In this document: one piece after another, positions 16,587-22,334 of the stretch
Layout of the letters: every line of letters begins with the position of its first letter
How positions within the stretch are numbered: the first letter of the stretch is position 1
Made by a program: the position numbers and the translations under genes
Notes under the pieces: model-generated
Databases searched by the model: none
Seen by the model: only the letters and a program-made list of their open reading frames with translations
Told to the model about the DNA's origin: nothing
DNA from: Escherichia phage VEc20
DNA length: 64,000 nt
Direction: 5' to 3' (one strand)
Sequence record: MN022785.1

Positions 16587-18683
16587 TTATCCTTGAACGA
16601 ACTTGTAAGGCATGTTTGTAATATCTATGCAAGACGCAATAATTCCAAGAGATGATTCGACTTTCTGTTTAACATTTGATGAAACAAATGATGCAAAATC
16701 AACTCTATCTTCTATTTCAATATCACCAGTCATTGCAACTACTTCACCAGTTTCCATTAGACGGTCACCGTCATAAATTACTGATTCGGTGAGTTCTTCC
16801 GTAGTCATAACTTCAGCTTGAATGAGTTTTGTATTATTAGATGTTGTTCCGTCGTTATTAGAAGCATCAGTTATTTTATTGACTTTGACCATCAATCCAC
16901 GCGGTAGAATAACTTCAGCTTCTGTTGCTATTCCGAGACTTCCTGGATATACAACATTAACTTTATGAGCTCCATCAATTGCCCATCCTATTTGAACTTT
17001 AACGTATTCAGGATTTTCTTTATACGCTCTTATTTCGTTTGGATTAATAGTTATTCCTTCTTCATTTTTATCAACTGTTAATTCATTGCGAGCTTCTGGT
17101 TCTAAAAGACCAATACCAGCATGTGTAATTCCAAAACGTCCAAAAATGATAGGAGTTAAAGAAGTAGATACAAAATTTCTGAAATAGAATACTTTATTTT
17201 TAACTAGTGCTTCGTATATAGGAGCAGTCATACTTTGAGCACGATAAACTGTAATGCCTTCTGGTATACGATCACCATTTTCAAAAGCAGAATCTAAATT
17301 AGTTATAGCAGCTTCAATTTCTTTTTCACTCATTACTTCATAACGTTCTGGATCATAACGACCCAAAAGAAGATTATTGATGTCAGTATATCCTGAACCG
17401 CAATACTCTCTAATGCCACGCTTTTGTGATGGAGTATATTTAGAACCATCACGGGCAATAGTAATATCAATCATTGGACCTGCACCAATTCCAGAGAAAC
17501 TATAAATCATTCTTTTGAGGAATTTAGTTTTTGTCGCGTTCCAGGAATTTTTAGTTATTTCTTCCCAGACTTCATCTGGCTGTCCTTTACGGGTTTTATT
17601 ATGTTTATCAAGCCAAGTATCTTTATATTCTTCAAATAATTGATTAACAGCTGCTGCGTATTTCTCTAAACATTTTATTGAAGTAGTCGGTTCATTTTTA
17701 ATCGCATTAAGAATTACATCTTTAATTTTTTCAGAAACTTCATTAACCTCACTTTTTGAAAAGAATTTATAGTCATAATGAAGTTCATCTGCAGTTCCTT
17801 CGGCAATGATTTTTGCTGCCTTAGTTTTAGAAGCTAATGAATTAATTCCAATTTTCATTTCTTCTGCTTCGGGAATTAAAGGTGCAGTAGCTGGTTTATT
17901 AAAATTAGCTGCTGTAGATTCATACTTCTGGAATAATTCACTTTCAAATCTAGAAGACTCTAATGATTGACTTTGTGCAATTGCTCTACGGGAAATTTTA
18001 ACTTTAACGATTACAGCTTGGTCAGAACGTTTATCATTTTCTTGTGCAATAGATGCTGCAATTGCCTCATTTTTAGTTACTTGAGCTCCAGTATCTTTAT
18101 TGATATAAACATCACCGACCTTCGATTCAACTTTAGTAAAGAGCTCGGTACTAATTTCCGGAACCCCTGGAATGTCTTCTAGTGATACATTTTTGCGATG
18201 TATAAGAATATATGCATACTTTTTATCATAATCCCAGAGTTCCTTAAGAAGGACGTATCTGCCACCTGAACGACTACGGATAAGTCTATCAGCAATAACT
18301 TGAATTTGTCGAGCTTGACCAGCAGTTTTAGACTTAAGAATACGGAGCATACAGGCATCAATTTTATACTGACGCATTGTTTGCATTGCAACAGTAAAAA
18401 CCGAATTGATATAATTAATTGGGCTTGGACCAAGACCTTTCAATTTAGCAATTGAACCTTTAGCGGTTAATGTAAAAGGAACAATATGCATCATTTTATC
18501 GCCCATCTTTAAATCACGATTAGTATCACCTCCAGATGTATAGGTACATAAACGAAAGCCTGGTTGTTCAATTGCATCATCAACATGAACTGAAAAAATT
18601 TGTGGTATTTTCTTCTTTGGATTTAAGTTTGTAATCGGAAGAGTAGTATCTTCGTCAAATAATTCTGTAATTAGTTCCATCAT
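16587..18683 (-). CDS. alt: ADP-ribosyltransferase Alt (packaged RNA-polymerase-modifying enzyme)
   Basis: 698-aa ORF; ART-like motifs (R...STS...EAE) in the C-terminal half; late promoter upstream. Confidence 0.85.
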   Translation of the reverse strand: MMELITELFDEDTTLPITNLNPKKKIPQIFSVHVDDAIEQPGFRLCTYTSGGDTNRDLKMGDKMMHIVPFTLTAKGSIAKLKGLGPSPINYINSVFTVAMQTMRQYKIDACMLRILKSKTAGQARQIQVIADRLIRSRSGGRYVLLKELWDYDKKYAYILIHRKNVSLEDIPGVPEISTELFTKVESKVGDVYINKDTGAQVTKNEAIAASIAQENDKRSDQAVIVKVKISRRAIAQSQSLESSRFESELFQKYESTAANFNKPATAPLIPEAEEMKIGINSLASKTKAAKIIAEGTADELHYDYKFFSKSEVNEVSEKIKDVILNAIKNEPTTSIKCLEKYAAAVNQLFEEYKDTWLDKHNKTRKGQPDEVWEEITKNSWNATKTKFLKRMIYSFSGIGAGPMIDITIARDGSKYTPSQKRGIREYCGSGYTDINNLLLGRYDPERYEVMSEKEIEAAITNLDSAFENGDRIPEGITVYRAQSMTAPIYEALVKNKVFYFRNFVSTSLTPIIFGRFGITHAGIGLLEPEARNELTVDKNEEGITINPNEIRAYKENPEYVKVQIGWAIDGAHKVNVVYPGSLGIATEAEVILPRGLMVKVNKITDASNNDGTTSNNTKLIQAEVMTTEELTESVIYDGDRLMETGEVVAMTGDIEIEDRVDFASFVSSNVKQKVESSLGIIASCIDITNMPYKFVQG

Positions 18684-18734: not shown

Positions 18735-18921
18735 AGTAATCTAGTGGTAAGAGAGTACGATATATTTCAAACTTTGGTCCTTTTTCATAGGCATCAAATG
18801 TTTCTGTAAATTTATTATAAGCGTATGCATCTACAAATTCGAGAATGACTTGTGATACAGAAGTAGAAACATCTCCACCTTCTTTTTGAGCAATGACAAT
18901 TGTTTCTAAGTAAGCTTTCAT
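18733..18921 (-). CDS. hypothetical protein
   Basis: 62-aa ORF overlapping the gene 30 stop by 4 nt. Confidence 0.5.
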   Translation of the reverse strand: MKAYLETIVIAQKEGGDVSTSVSQVILEFVDAYAYNKFTETFDAYEKGPKFEIYRTLLPLDY

Positions 18922-20381
18922 AGACCAGTTACCTCATGAAAATCACCAAATACATCCTCGAATGTATTAGCTTTAGTTTTATCTTCACGTAAACGAATCG
19001 CAATCGGAAGAAATAATTTAACGTAATCAGTGCGGCCATCAGATTTTAACCAACCGTTGCATTCGCACTCTAGAATTTTTCCAATATAATAATTTTGGTT
19101 TTCCATAATGCGAGTACGGTCAAGTTCATGTGATTTTACACCGGCTTTATCTTTTAAGCCTGAACCAGCATTTACCTTAATTTTTCCACACTCTGACTCA
19201 AGAATAAATCCACCCGCTTTAGTAGGGTCTTTACGGTGAGGATAAATTCCTACAATTTTTAAATCAACATCAATTACTTCTTTAAATTTATAGAGATTTT
19301 TTGAACGAGCATTTTCCCATAATCCATCGATATTTTTGAGAATAATACCTTCAAGACCTTGGTCAATATACTTTTTATAAATTACCTTAGCTTCATCTAG
19401 GTTATTTACTACCTGGTTTTCAATTAAAATTACTTTATCATAGCCTGATGTCATTTGTTCTAGTTTAGAAAAACGTACATCATATTTTAAACGAAACGCC
19501 GGAAGACCGTATATTTCTACCAACGGGACATAATCCCAGACCTGAAACTTCATGCATTGAGCTTCTTTTTCGGAAATGGTTCCCTTTAAAGATTTATTAG
19601 CGATTCCATTAGAAGTAGTACGTGATTCAGCTACTTCGGCGAATTCTTTGGCTTTACTAATTTCAGGATAAGCATCAAAAAGAAAATCTAGGCCTTCTGG
19701 CTCCTTTTTAACTTGCTCATGGTATACCAATTCGCCATCAATTAACACGCCTTCTGGATGAATCTGGCGGGCTTCAGCGGTCATTTTGATTAATTCTTCC
19801 TTAAGAAGATCTAATCCTAGATATTCATTACCGGCTCGTGATAAAAGACGAACATCATCTAATTCATCACCTCTGACTTCGGCAAAGCACCGAGCCCCAT
19901 CAGCTTTTAACTGGGCAAAGGCTGGAAATTTGATATTCTTATTAATGCCTTTTTCATCATAAGAACTTGCCAGCATTTGAGGTTGTTCAGGAATTAAACC
20001 TGGCCAAACTTTGTTTGCAATAGATACTGAAGCACCACATTCAAGGTCTCGCATCATCACTCGACGCAAAACTTCAACATCATCTTTTTTACCATCGGTG
20101 ATATATCCAGTTAATTCCTCAATTGCTGCATTTCCAGTCAATTTCCGAGTAGCTAATGTGAATTCAATGAAGTCAAGCATATCGGTAAGAGTCAACATTC
20201 CAAAACTCTGGGTAGCAATACCAGGTTTAGGCCATTTCTTGATATAATACTGCAGCCCACGAGAATAAGTCAGACGATATACTCGTTTAAGCAATTCATT
20301 ATCTTTATTCTTTTCAAGAATTGCTTGCTTCTGCTTAGTTGAACCAATAGATGCTATTTCGTTCAGAATTTTAAGAATCAT
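18918..20381 (-). CDS. 30: ATP-dependent DNA ligase gp30
   Basis: 487-aa ORF, T4 ligase length; adenylation motif KADGAR. Confidence 0.9.
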   Translation of the reverse strand: MILKILNEIASIGSTKQKQAILEKNKDNELLKRVYRLTYSRGLQYYIKKWPKPGIATQSFGMLTLTDMLDFIEFTLATRKLTGNAAIEELTGYITDGKKDDVEVLRRVMMRDLECGASVSIANKVWPGLIPEQPQMLASSYDEKGINKNIKFPAFAQLKADGARCFAEVRGDELDDVRLLSRAGNEYLGLDLLKEELIKMTAEARQIHPEGVLIDGELVYHEQVKKEPEGLDFLFDAYPEISKAKEFAEVAESRTTSNGIANKSLKGTISEKEAQCMKFQVWDYVPLVEIYGLPAFRLKYDVRFSKLEQMTSGYDKVILIENQVVNNLDEAKVIYKKYIDQGLEGIILKNIDGLWENARSKNLYKFKEVIDVDLKIVGIYPHRKDPTKAGGFILESECGKIKVNAGSGLKDKAGVKSHELDRTRIMENQNYYIGKILECECNGWLKSDGRTDYVKLFLPIAIRLREDKTKANTFEDVFGDFHEVTGL

Positions 20382-20647
20382 TGTTCATCCTTCAGAGTTT
20401 GGTTTACAGCTCTATTATAAATCAATTCATCATTAAGCTCAGTCAAAGACTTATGATATGTGGTTCTAACTTTATTTCCTTGCATCCAGTGCTTGATATA
20501 AATGAAACCTTGCTCTACGCATTTTTTAAAAATTCGTTCGTCTTTTTGAGCTCGGAATTCTGGATTGCATCTAAAAAATTGATTTACGTGACCGTAATCA
20601 CGTGTAGTATTACCTTCATTTTCATAAATAGTGTGAACAACAAACAT
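20378..20647 (-). CDS. hypothetical protein (30.1-like)
   Basis: 89-aa ORF with 4-nt overlaps to both neighbours. Confidence 0.5.
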   Translation of the reverse strand: MFVVHTIYENEGNTTRDYGHVNQFFRCNPEFRAQKDERIFKKCVEQGFIYIKHWMQGNKVRTTYHKSLTELNDELIYNRAVNQTLKDEQ

Positions 20648-21486
20648 TAGAATGCTCCTTGGAAAATATTATCACCACAAGTAGGTCTATTATACAAATA
20701 CTCTATACCGCCGGGTTTAATATAGTTCCATGTCTGAAACGGATGTGTCTGATATGGATGATATAGATGATTATAAGGATTAAATCCAGGAGTTCTCCAG
20801 GTAGTGTTCCAACGAAAAGAATCGTTTTTAATCATCTTTTCAATTACATCTTTTATAGCTTTTTCACTATCAAAACTTTCTTTATTTTCCTTTGGTGAAA
20901 AAAGCTTATTCTCTACATCGTTCCATGTATAAACTCGCTGAGCAGTTTTTGGAATACTGTCACGTTCCCCTCGAGCCATCCAATAAACAGGAACACTTAA
21001 TATTTCACTCGCGTGATCGCAGTGGTGAGCGAGATCGTCAATATAACAAATTACGTTATATTTCTCTTTTGCCTTTTTGAACAACTCTTCTTTTGAAGAA
21101 TCATGACCACACATCAGTACTTCTGAGAAGGCACCAGGAAAAAGAGCATTCAAATTAAATTGACGATTCAGCAGAGCGTCAATAGAATCACCCAGCGCTG
21201 TAACAGCTACAAAATTATAATCTTCTTTTAATTTGTTAATTACACACAGAGCATCTTTATATGGAGACAAGTAACGAATAAAATCTGAACGATTGTATTT
21301 TTCAATTAACTTGACACCAAGTTCTTCATCACAATTAAAAAGTTTACCAGGAGAAATAAATTTTTCATCTTGGATCATTTTTAAAATATGTTCCAACGGA
21401 AGATTATATTTCTGAGCAAAATAAGGAAGGCCTGATTGCCAGCTTAAACACACTCCATCAATATCAGTTAAAATAGTAGGCTTCAT
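20647..21486 (-). CDS. HAD-superfamily hydrolase-like protein (30.2-like)
   Basis: 279-aa ORF with N-terminal DxDGV motif (ILTDIDGVCL). Confidence 0.55.
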   Translation of the reverse strand: MKPTILTDIDGVCLSWQSGLPYFAQKYNLPLEHILKMIQDEKFISPGKLFNCDEELGVKLIEKYNRSDFIRYLSPYKDALCVINKLKEDYNFVAVTALGDSIDALLNRQFNLNALFPGAFSEVLMCGHDSSKEELFKKAKEKYNVICYIDDLAHHCDHASEILSVPVYWMARGERDSIPKTAQRVYTWNDVENKLFSPKENKESFDSEKAIKDVIEKMIKNDSFRWNTTWRTPGFNPYNHLYHPYQTHPFQTWNYIKPGGIEYLYNRPTCGDNIFQGAF

Positions 21487-21947
21487 AGAGAGTCTCTTAA
21501 TAGGTTTAACACATCAATAAATTCAGCTTCGGTTAGTATTGTATCATCTTTTGTTAGACCACTAGCCATGCTGTGCTTCAAAACTTTTCCTTTCGAGGCT
21601 TGTAACGCATCACGAAAGCCCTTGTTTTGGATCGCTGCTTCAAAATATGCATTTGTGTATAATTCTTTCCACGCCGGGGAGTATCTTGAAAATGGAACTC
21701 CAAGCCAGAAGAGGGTTCCACGGTCTTGAGCTCTTGCATAAGACCTTCCAGCTTGTTGGGCGGCAAGCCCGGATAACCCAAATATACGACGTTGTTGTTC
21801 AACGTTTTTCACCTTGCATCCTTGGAGGAATCCTTCAAGACCTCCAAATTGAATACCATCCATAACGAAAGGCCAATGGGCGAAATTACTTAATGCACAT
21901 GATGGCCACCTAAAATTGCTTCTAATCTCTAACTCAGACATTTTCAA
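21483..21947 (-). CDS. NADAR/YbiA-family protein (30.3-like)
   Basis: 154-aa ORF; segment LSNFAHWPFVMDGIQFGGLEGFLQGCKV resembles the YbiA/NADAR core FSNFAAWP...EHYFQAQKF. Confidence 0.5.
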   Translation of the reverse strand: MKMSELEIRSNFRWPSCALSNFAHWPFVMDGIQFGGLEGFLQGCKVKNVEQQRRIFGLSGLAAQQAGRSYARAQDRGTLFWLGVPFSRYSPAWKELYTNAYFEAAIQNKGFRDALQASKGKVLKHSMASGLTKDDTILTEAEFIDVLNLLRDSL

Positions 21948-22140
21948 TGCTTATAATTTCAACATCAGCCCAATGACCATAGCAAGGAAGACGAAATTCA
22001 ACTGGCCAGTTAGGGTCCTTTTCTAATATAATAGACTCAACTCGTGGTTCTTCACGTTCATCAGTATATGGATTTTTATCTGTTACTTTATATGTGACCT
22101 TAATGTACTGAATTCCAAAAATCTTATTAATTATATTCAT
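21934..22140 (-). CDS. hypothetical protein
   Basis: 68-aa ORF in the operon. Confidence 0.45.
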   Translation of the reverse strand: MNIINKIFGIQYIKVTYKVTDKNPYTDEREEPRVESIILEKDPNWPVEFRLPCYGHWADVEIISIENV

Positions 22141-22334
22141 ACTAATTCCTTTAATCCGTAGATAGGAGATAATTCATCACCCATACGAAGGTCTTCATTT
22201 CCATCTACCCAGGAAACAATATAAGCCTCTTTTATTTGAATACCACTCCATTTAAATGGAGGTAGAACCTTAGAAATTAATCCAGGTATACCAACTCCCT
22301 TTAATTCAACAGTTTGACCTAAAAAGAATTTCAT
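22137..22334 (-). CDS. hypothetical protein
   Basis: 65-aa ORF, 4-nt overlap. Confidence 0.45.
   Translation of the reverse strand: MKFFLGQTVELKGVGIPGLISKVLPPFKWSGIQIKEAYIVSWVDGNEDLRMGDELSPIYGLKELV

Follow-up and report, generated by a model that had tools for sequence, protein, structure and literature searches.

The neighbouring genes 30.3 and 30.2 of a T4-like phage appear to encode two enzymes with separate roles. The first product, gp30.3, is the phage NADAR enzyme AdfN, which counters the host DarTG1 defence, and the second, gp30.2, is most readily explained as an independent HAD phosphatase that resembles the 5'(3')-deoxyribonucleotidases (NT5C) and is linked in the genome to DNA ligase. 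We put the probability of this combined explanation at about 85%. The genes lie in a 64,000-nucleotide stretch of Escherichia phage VEc20 (MN022785.1), referred to here as the window. For both proteins, identity, fold and motifs come from the present analysis; the activity and phenotype of AdfN come from the literature on the T4 protein, which is 99% identical.

The window belongs to a T4-like (Tequatrovirus) genome, and this region shares 99.8% identity with Tequatrovirus genomes already sequenced. Both open reading frames picked out in an earlier sequence-only reading of this DNA are present on the minus strand where that reading had placed them, and the features of the locus are collected in the table. 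A mechanically produced list of reading frames begins 30.3 at a TTG at position 21947, which gives 154 aa (21483..21947); the likely start is the ATG at 21941, which gives the 152 aa of the T4 annotation. As in T4, 30.3 is flanked by genes 30.4 and 30.2. Read along the coding strand, 30.3 comes first, followed by 30.2, 30.1 and ligase, with an ATGA overlap between 30.3 and 30.2 and a TAATG overlap between the stop of 30.2 and the start of 30.1. The pair had earlier been described as lying directly downstream of ligase; this order instead puts it upstream in transcription, with 30.1 in between. Nor does alt appear to belong to this operon, as had been supposed, since a hairpin resembling a terminator and a box with the T4 late-promoter consensus TATAAATA lie between it and the ligase cluster. 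From the sequence, alt would form a late transcription unit of its own.

Table. Features of the 30.3-ligase region of the window (all on the minus strand)
Feature	Position	Strand	Basis or remark
Gene 30.3 (adfN)	21483..21941	-	ATG start, 152 aa; stand-alone NADAR-fold DNA ADP-ribosylglycohydrolase
Codons E36 to K43 (EGFLQGCK)	21813..21836	-	Catalytic Glu and Lys of AdfN; homologue alignment and published mutants
Codon H123	21573..21575	-	His replacing the Glu/Asp of other NADARs; marks the phage gp30.3 subtype
Gene 30.2	20647..21486	-	279 aa, predicted HAD-fold phosphatase
HAD motif I, DIDGV (aa 8-12 of gp30.2)	21451..21465	-	D8 presumed nucleophile, D10 presumed general acid/base
Gene 30.1 (DUF3045)	20378..20647	-	PF11243, E=4.3e-64; between 30.2 and ligase
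Gene 30, ATP-dependent DNA ligase	18918..20381	-	Assigned via synteny with the T4 annotation
Terminator-like hairpin and T residues	18735-18716	-	Terminator scan; between the ligase cluster and alt
Late-promoter box TATAAATA	18711-18704	-	Sequence reading; between the ligase cluster and alt

The identity of gp30.3 is clear, with 150 of its 152 residues the same as in the T4 protein and a match to the Pfam family PF08010 (Phage_30_3) that covers model positions 1-138 of 138 (E=7.7e-70, 233.5 bits against a cut-off of 36). Single-sequence phmmer searches of the solved structures gave nothing significant for either gp30.3 or gp30.2, so profiles were needed, and NCBIfam gave no meaningful match for either protein. 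The family profile of gp30.3 matches Escherichia coli YbiA (E=0.0027) exactly over the segment LSNFAHWPFVMDGIQFGGLEGFLQGCKV, which is present in the 154-aa frame and had been singled out in the sequence-only reading as resembling the YbiA/NADAR core. The tie to NADAR is at the level of the superfamily and not that of the Pfam NADAR model PF08719, to which gp30.3 has no match at E<=1 and on which one homologue (P0183) scores 32.3 bits, just below the cut-off of 35.1.

The predicted structure leads to the same family. The AF2 model of gp30.3 has a pLDDT of 94, with the NADAR core beginning at about residue 3, and in a Foldseek search of the PDB the top three matches are all NADAR structures, namely 2b3w, 8bau and 8bat (probability 0.98-1.00), with E-values of 8e-5 for YbiA, 0.018 for the P. 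nicotianae NADAR with ADP-ribose and 0.046 for the Geobacter lovleyi NADAR; the probability of the fourth-ranked match falls to 0.02. Among 45 homologues no variation is seen in the LSNF at residues 17-20 or at E36, G37, F38 and Q40, and the conservation of K43 is at least 90%; LSNF, E36, Q40 and K43 align with the same residues in YbiA. H123, which ends or adjoins the last strand (120-122) of the model, is likewise invariant, and corresponds to a last-strand residue that is Glu in YbiA, Asp in BC4488 and His in the phage gp30.3 subtype (PMC11125620). By profile, fold and catalytic residues, gp30.3 is thus a NADAR superfamily member, and the profile and structure searches that the sequence-only reading had named as a check bear out its proposal, PF08719 itself being unmatched.

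The biochemistry of this protein is known from T4. In vitro the T4 protein hydrolyses guanosine-ADPr (PMC11125620), and the enzyme removes guanine-linked ADP-ribose from DNA, a reaction that purified AdfN carries out alone in vitro (bioRxiv 10.1101/2024.07.11.602962; PMC11125620). [quoted passage not shown] The reversal of host DNA ADP-ribosylation that had been suggested for the window is therefore the published role of its T4 orthologue (bioRxiv 10.1101/2024.07.11.602962; PMC11125620). Length, the E36/K43/H123 residues and the position between 30.4 and 30.2 are shared by the two proteins, which differ only by the substitutions Q22H and I125M; position 22 varies throughout the family, and no functional difference is expected. 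By extension, the window protein would act as a single-domain NADAR "orphan antitoxin" that uses E36 and K43 together with the phage-specific H123 to cut the ADP-ribose-guanine bond placed on phage DNA by host DarT1 during infection, and it is proposed that replication can therefore proceed.

Two related groups help to define the enzyme. The NADARs associated with DarG1/DarT1 (the BC4488 family, for instance that of G. lovleyi, 8bat) have the same fold as gp30.3 (Foldseek probability 0.98) and the same chemistry as T4 AdfN, the removal of guanine-linked ADP-ribose from DNA (bioRxiv 10.1101/2024.07.11.602962; PMC11125620). In contrast to them, gp30.3 has His123 rather than Asp, has no N-terminal extension to its 152 aa, and is adjoined by 30.4 and 30.2 and not by a DarT gene; T4 AdfN, moreover, is not an antitoxin in uninfected cells (bioRxiv 10.1101/2024.07.11.602962). 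A DarG1-type antitoxin was ruled out on these grounds, and gp30.3 is an orphan, not the antitoxin of a toxin-antitoxin pair. The second is E. coli YbiA, the founding member of the NADAR/YbiA fold, which shares the SNF...E..Q..K core with gp30.3 at 18% identity and serves a housekeeping function in riboflavin metabolism (bioRxiv 10.1101/2024.07.11.602962). YbiA is the best match of gp30.3 by both sequence profile and fold (TM 0.67), as would be expected if gp30.3 were a housekeeping N-glycosidase acting on intermediates of the riboflavin pathway instead of a DNA de-ADP-ribosylase. This assignment is hardly credible, as His123 stands where the YbiA family has Glu, and published experiments on the T4 protein, which is 99% identical, demonstrate both DNA guanine de-ADP-ribosylation and DarTG1 counter-defence, in vitro and in vivo.

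The partner protein, gp30.2, is 98% identical to its T4 counterpart, matches phrog_420 with E=4.9e-93 and has homologues in 1,452 phage records. The sequence-only reading had called it HAD-type on the strength of a DxDGV motif, and DIDGV is indeed found together with the rest of the HAD signature. D8, D10 and G11 of motif I are invariant among 41 homologues, as is K132 of motif III, and conservation is at least 90% both for T96 of motif II (T96/A97) and for D150-D151 of motif IV. The protein also shows the Rossmannoid HAD fold, with the core modelled confidently. A HAD core and a helical C1 cap (aa 12-88) make up about aa 1-200, and the remaining 80 or so residues (about aa 200-279) form a variable tail with low confidence in the model. 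Sequence and model together identify gp30.2 as a predicted phosphatase of the HAD fold, helically capped, complete in its four catalytic motifs and presumably Mg2+-dependent.

Within the HAD proteins, gp30.2 appears nearest to the NT5C branch. The window protein itself matches neither the Pfam HAD models (PF00702 and PF13419) nor PF06941 (NT5C); 11 of the 41 homologues give sub-threshold matches to PF00702 (best E=3.5e-4), PF06941 is weakly matched by seven of the 41, and two distant relatives exceed its cut-off of 24.8 (P0340, 36.8 bits; P0346, 25.5 bits). The best PDB match of the family profile is the 5'(3')-deoxyribonucleotidase 2jao (E=0.032), in an alignment that places the invariant W16 of gp30.2 on the Phe following motif I. 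In NT5C enzymes an aromatic side chain that follows motif I, Phe18 of cdN and Phe49 of mdN, stacks against the base, and W16 is at least 90% conserved even across distant members of the gp30.2 family. In a fold search of a viral library the leading matches were orthologues lacking annotation, and after them came phage entries with the generic names "5' nucleotidase" or HAD. As the window protein falls under the Pfam thresholds, the nucleotidase assignment draws on the fold, on profile matches that are weak and on a single aligned aromatic residue. The substrate class suggested by sequence and model is most probably that of small phosphoesters, for instance (deoxy)nucleoside monophosphates; no biochemistry was found in a literature search on the term "gp30.2".

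The protein was also compared with characterized enzymes. Against the NT5C family proper (human and mouse cdN and mdN, and 3bwv of Staphylococcus epidermidis) it lies below the NT5C and HAD Pfam thresholds and carries the extra variable C-terminal tail. The phosphatase domain of T4 polynucleotide kinase/3'-phosphatase (PseT) aligns with it over only about 126-129 core residues, and the DNA 3'-phosphatase of Pnkp is a capless HAD, unlike the C1-capped gp30.2. Dmp of phage T5, a deoxynucleoside-5'-monophosphatase, is like gp30.2 an early phage enzyme whose motif, here DxDGT, is N-terminal, but was rejected as a relative: the hhalign probability is 2%, motif I alone aligns, and Dmp has no Pfam match. 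Matches of gp30.2 to thiamine pyrophosphokinase (Pfam E=0.21, NCBIfam 0.011) were treated as noise, being far short of the threshold and at odds with the fold.

Whether the two proteins act together can be judged from published genetics and from genome context. The sequence-only reading suggested that the pair may process ADP-ribosylated nucleotides or reverse host ADP-ribosylation of DNA, which would amount to a two-step pathway. In it the NADAR enzyme takes the first step, by freeing ADP-ribose or acting on ADP-ribosylated nucleotides, and the HAD phosphatase completes the work on the product, both being required. In the HIDEN-SEQ transposon screen of T4 on DarTG1 hosts, insertions in 30.3 were lost (log2FC -7.25, q=0), whereas 30.2 was neutral over 71 TA sites (log2FC -0.12, p=0.61, q=1); 30.3 and 30.4 were the only two significant genes, the depletion of 30.4 insertions being mild (log2FC -1.79) and possibly due to polarity on adfN, and across the published T4 screens 30.2 has no phenotype in LB, in M9 or on DarTG1 hosts. 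The sufficiency of purified AdfN in vitro likewise counts against a required second step. The adjacency, too, is not conserved. A NADAR gene lies within 5 kb of gp30.2 in 36 of 79 viral loci anchored on gp30.2 and is absent nearby in the other 43, while among 80 NADAR loci a gp30.2 gene is found within 5 kb in 20 and no homologue is nearby in 60, which include jumbo-phage contigs of 250-420 kb; in at least seven T4-like contigs the two genes are about 55 kb apart.

Several observations nonetheless favour a functional pair. The genes overlap by ATGA, and in all 36 close loci, which include phages at around 40-50% identity, NADAR is upstream of gp30.2 on the same strand, a constancy that may have causes beyond the inheritance of gene order. 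The full effect of AdfN is confined to T-even infection, and its authors leave open help from another phage factor (bioRxiv 10.1101/2024.07.11.602962). RB69 was used for the sufficiency tests, and RB69-like phages are represented among the loci that carry gp30.2, so a part played by 30.2 is compatible with the outcome of those tests. Weighed together, the two-step pathway is improbable, and for DarTG1 it is largely refuted. Of the original proposal, the part that concerns 30.3 stands, and the pairing with 30.2 does not. The preferred explanation would see 30.3 and 30.2 as independent early genes that are translationally coupled neighbours by chance, with gp30.2 playing no part in the anti-DarTG1 mechanism and having DNA ligase, not NADAR, as its conserved genomic partner.

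No neighbour of gp30.2 is more conserved than ligase, which was found within 5 kb in 74 of the 79 loci. Nearly always it follows gp30.2 directly on the same strand, also in loci where the ligase identity drops to 36-40%, and the linkage outlasts rearrangement: in L077-L079 and in the P0099/P0100 contigs ligase is upstream of gp30.2 and the other neighbours differ (UvsY, UvsW). A 136-aa gene between ligase and the HAD gene in the P0100 contig was tested as a NADAR and is none. There is also a natural fusion, P0013, of the 30.2 core with the DUF3045 domain of 30.1. This near-universal linkage and the fusion are compatible with a gp30.2 that works with ligase, and possibly with gp30.1, as a phosphatase preparing or cleaning ligation substrates or products (3'-phosphate ends, AMP or related nucleotides). 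As such a dedicated partner and not a generic nucleotidase, it would keep or make nicks ligatable, or would be the T-even-specific factor that completes AdfN-type repair under defences other than the DarTG1 tested. We consider either version doubtful. A C1 cap usually limits HAD enzymes to small substrates, and gp30.2 has one; the conserved core synteny of T4-like genomes could alone explain the linkage; and the lack of a phenotype in the published screens also weighs against it. Outside the T4-like phages, a hand check of three genomes found no ligase near the 30.2 homologue of KVP40, Pseudomonas phage PAC2 or Stenotrophomonas phage DLP_6.

The KVP40 locus raises one further function, in which gp30.2 would recycle metabolites of NAD or ADP-ribose, for instance by dephosphorylating NMN or ribose-5-phosphate, and so be indirectly linked to ADP-ribosylation. 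In this Vibrio phage the 30.2-related HAD gene (KVP40.0262) is about 470 bp from nadV, which encodes nicotinamide phosphoribosyltransferase, and near a PF04095 protein, and at one NADAR locus (L115) a NadV homologue is 3.4 kb away. Such recycling is nevertheless very improbable, given that NadV adjoins the HAD gene in KVP40 only, among more than 79 loci tested, and that no NAD-salvage gene adjoins 30.2 in the window; as a general pattern the NadV-HAD linkage was rejected, with KVP40 the sole case.

The undoing of host DNA ADP-ribosylation by a phage NADAR enzyme is biologically important, and the suggestion of it for this locus is correct and already known as AdfN, which was predicted in 2023, demonstrated in vitro in 2024 and in vivo in 2024-2025. 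To this the window adds one more 99%-identical adfN allele and nothing new. The well-conserved predicted phosphatase gp30.2, which is without a phenotype in the published screens, offers a modest lead: its tie to ligase rather than to NADAR redirects the search for its function.

The window belongs to a Tequatrovirus (T4-like) genome. Its region 20300-22200 shares 99.8% identity with Escherichia phage EC128 and Yersinia phage fPS-90 and has matches in 653 phage records. Both ORFs singled out by the sequence-only reading are real: they lie on the minus strand exactly where it had placed them, and the peptide that it quoted and the DIDGV motif are found in them. Comparison with the T4 annotation gives them the names 30.3 and 30.2, with identities to the T4 proteins of 150/152 and 273/279, respectively. 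Residues of 30.3 are numbered over the 152 amino acids that follow the ATG at window position 21941, which matches the annotated start in T4. On the coding strand the genes run 30.6, 30.5, 30.4, 30.3, 30.2, 30.1, 30 (ligase) and alt.1, and stop and start codons overlap at all junctions from 30.6 to alt.1 (TAATG or ATGA; 8 nt at 30.4/30.3). The description of the pair as directly downstream of DNA ligase holds only in plus-strand coordinates; in transcription 30.3 and 30.2 are therefore upstream of the ligase, with 30.1 (DUF3045) sitting between 30.2 and the ligase.

Features of the window around 30.3 and 30.2
Feature	Position	Strand	Length	Remark
30.4	21934-22140	minus
30.3 (adfN)	21483-21947	minus	154 aa	counted from TTG
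30.3'	21578-21802	minus	74 aa	T4-annotated ORF in another frame within 30.3; Pfam DUF2883
30.2	20647-21486	minus	279 aa
terminator-like hairpin	18735-18716	minus
TATAAATA	18711-18704	minus
alt (Alt ADP-ribosyltransferase)	16587-18683	minus	698 aa	T4 alt CDS 123454-125502 corresponds to 682 aa

An operon shared with alt, as had been proposed, is unsupported. A terminator scan finds a GC-rich, terminator-like hairpin followed by T residues after alt.1 and, directly past the hairpin and about 20 nt ahead of the alt start codon, lies TATAAATA, which is the T4 late promoter consensus. Because these two elements precede it, alt looks like a late transcription unit of its own, outside the 30.x operon.

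The 30.3 protein matches the Pfam family PF08010 (Phage_30_3; E=7.7e-70). Among 45 homologues, aligned down to 35% identity, LSNF (17-20), E36, G37, F38, Q40 and H123 do not vary and K43 hardly does, and the profile of this alignment matches E. coli YbiA (2b3w; E=0.0027) across the segment originally flagged as YbiA-like. AlphaFold models the protein with confidence (pLDDT 94), and the best three PDB matches of the model are the three NADAR structures, namely YbiA (E=8e-5), a Phytophthora NADAR with ADP-ribose, and the Geobacter lovleyi NADAR; the fourth match has a probability of 0.02. The NADAR reading is borne out by these profile and structure searches. Membership is at the level of the superfamily, since the window protein gives no match to PF08719 (NADAR) in a Pfam search and the homologue P0183 scores 32.3 bits on that family, under the cut-off of 35.1.

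Both the NADAR identity and the reversal of ADP-ribosylation are already known for this protein, as AdfN. Phage NADARs have been named 'gp30.3 proteins' and are defined by a histidine in the last strand, and T4 gp30.3 hydrolyses guanosine-ADP-ribose, not thymidine-ADP-ribose, in vitro (Toxins 2024, PMC11125620). The LeRoux-lab paper that renamed 30.3 adfN, and that credits the bioinformatic identification to Schuller et al. 2023, found the gene necessary and sufficient for resistance of T-even phages to DarTG1, a bacterial defence whose toxin, DarT1, puts ADP-ribose on guanine of phage DNA (bioRxiv 10.1101/2024.07.11.602962; PMC11825919). Purified AdfN takes ADP-ribose off DNA, its function is lost with E36A or K43A, and RB69 is DarTG1-sensitive because a frameshift truncates its adfN copy (10.1101/2024.07.11.602962). 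In uninfected cells AdfN gives no protection from DarT1, and it is of very little help to T5 or Bas25; its authors favour a preference for hydroxymethyl-cytosine DNA and leave room for a helper (10.1101/2024.07.11.602962). The earlier suggestion of a reversal of host DNA ADP-ribosylation was right, as judged by these published T4 data.

The adfN allele of the window is full length, with its catalytic residues all retained and the C-terminal helix present, so its product should be active, judging by sequence and model. Truncated or chimeric alleles without the catalytic E36/K43 half are found in several natural T4-like phages (P0107, P0114, P0116, P0117, P0149 and P0193). Among them are fusions of the AdfN C-terminus to an N-terminus from 30.7 or 30.8, which point to deletions across 30.4-30.7, and, in phage vB_Eco_NR1 (P0116), a product in which a frameshift has put the 30.3' N-terminus ahead of the C-terminus of AdfN. 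By analogy with RB69, phages carrying such alleles are predicted to be DarTG1-sensitive.

The 30.2 protein belongs to phrog_420, a function-unknown family, and has no Pfam match itself. Across 41 homologues there is no variation at D8, D10 and G11 of motif I, A97 of motif II or K132 of motif III, and conservation is at least 90% at T96 of motif II and at D150-D151 of motif IV. The model is confident for residues 1-190 and poor for the last ~80, and it contains a helical insertion (C1 cap) between motifs I and II. The best PDB match of the family profile is the 5'(3')-deoxyribonucleotidase 2jao (E=0.032), in an alignment that sets the invariant W16 on the Phe after motif I; in cdN and mdN this Phe stacks on the nucleobase. 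Of the 41 homologues, 7 give weak matches to Pfam NT5C; P0340 and P0346, more distant relatives drawn from an exhaustive profile search that yielded 1,395 cluster representatives, exceed its threshold. W16 is at least 90% conserved in the distant set too. Motif conservation, the modelled core with its cap and the profile matches therefore confirm the HAD assignment at the level of the fold. Our best guess is that 30.2 is a nucleotidase-like small-molecule phosphatase, a substrate class that we infer. The C-terminal tail (residues ~200-279; window 20647-20890) is variable and is absent in many homologues of ~200 aa. Many long forms share a near-terminal motif, G-I-E-Y-[LWY]-x-x-[QR]-P-T (IEYLYNRPT in the window), which might be a docking peptide.

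The evidence says that gp30.2 does not act with AdfN, at least against DarTG1. In the HIDEN-SEQ transposon study of T4, which compares control with DarTG1 gene by gene (bioRxiv 10.1101/2025.11.20.689424, sheet Data S6), significance on DarTG1 is reached by two genes only, namely 30.3 (log2FC -7.25, q=0) and 30.4 (log2FC -1.79, q=0.014). The values for 30.2, with 71 TA sites, are log2FC -0.12, p=0.61 and q=1, and that for alt is log2FC -0.01; 30.2 is also non-essential on K-12 and neutral in minimal medium (10.1101/2025.11.20.689424). These data make 30.2 unlikely as an AdfN helper in T4. Given the 8-nt overlap between 30.4 and the start of adfN, the depletion of 30.4 is likely to be a polar effect on adfN, with a helper role for 30.4 against DarTG1 a conceivable alternative. 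Purified AdfN, moreover, acts on DNA without a partner (10.1101/2024.07.11.602962; PMC11125620). Within a comparative set of 159 viral loci (79 anchored on gp30.2 and 80 on NADAR), a NADAR gene lies within 5 kb of gp30.2 in 36/79, in each case on the same strand and upstream, separated by 0-1250 bp, and gp30.2 lies within 5 kb of NADAR in just 20/80. In at least seven T4-like contigs the two genes are both present, ~55 kb from each other, and many of the NADAR contigs come from jumbo phages and have no gp30.2 nearby. With 30.2 neutral in the screen, AdfN working alone and adjacency at these frequencies, the proposal that the two proteins work as a pair finds no support.

The gp30.2 gene is tied far more tightly to an ATP-dependent ligase than to NADAR (window 18918-21486, minus strand; loci L001-L079, L163 and L165). 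The ligase almost invariably follows gp30.2 directly on the same strand, even at 36-40% ligase identity. L077-L079 and the contigs carrying P0099 and P0100, the most distant homologues, have the ligase upstream and a different set of other neighbours (UvsY, UvsW), with at most two small genes separating gp30.2 from the ligase. One homologue of 302 aa, P0013, the counterpart of window 20378-21486, joins the gp30.2 HAD core, with G11D in motif I (DIDDV), to a gp30.1-type (DUF3045) domain that occupies residues 230-295; the fusion may be genuine, or it may come from a frameshift in the contig, which is just 1.4 kb long. The homologue in KVP40 (L166, 137172-139707) is ~470 bp away from the NAD-salvage gene nadV, on the divergent strand and adjoining radical-SAM genes, a single case, as no NadV is found near gp30.2 homologues outside KVP40.

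A functional link between gp30.2 and the ligase is favoured by their proximity, within 5 kb in 74 of the 79 gp30.2 loci, and by a linkage that survives rearrangement. However, shared T4-like core synteny could account for the pattern, the cap points to substrates of small size, and no ligase is found near the homologues in KVP40, Pseudomonas phage PAC2 and Stenotrophomonas phage DLP_6. The linkage to ligase is a modest new lead on the substrate and role of gp30.2.
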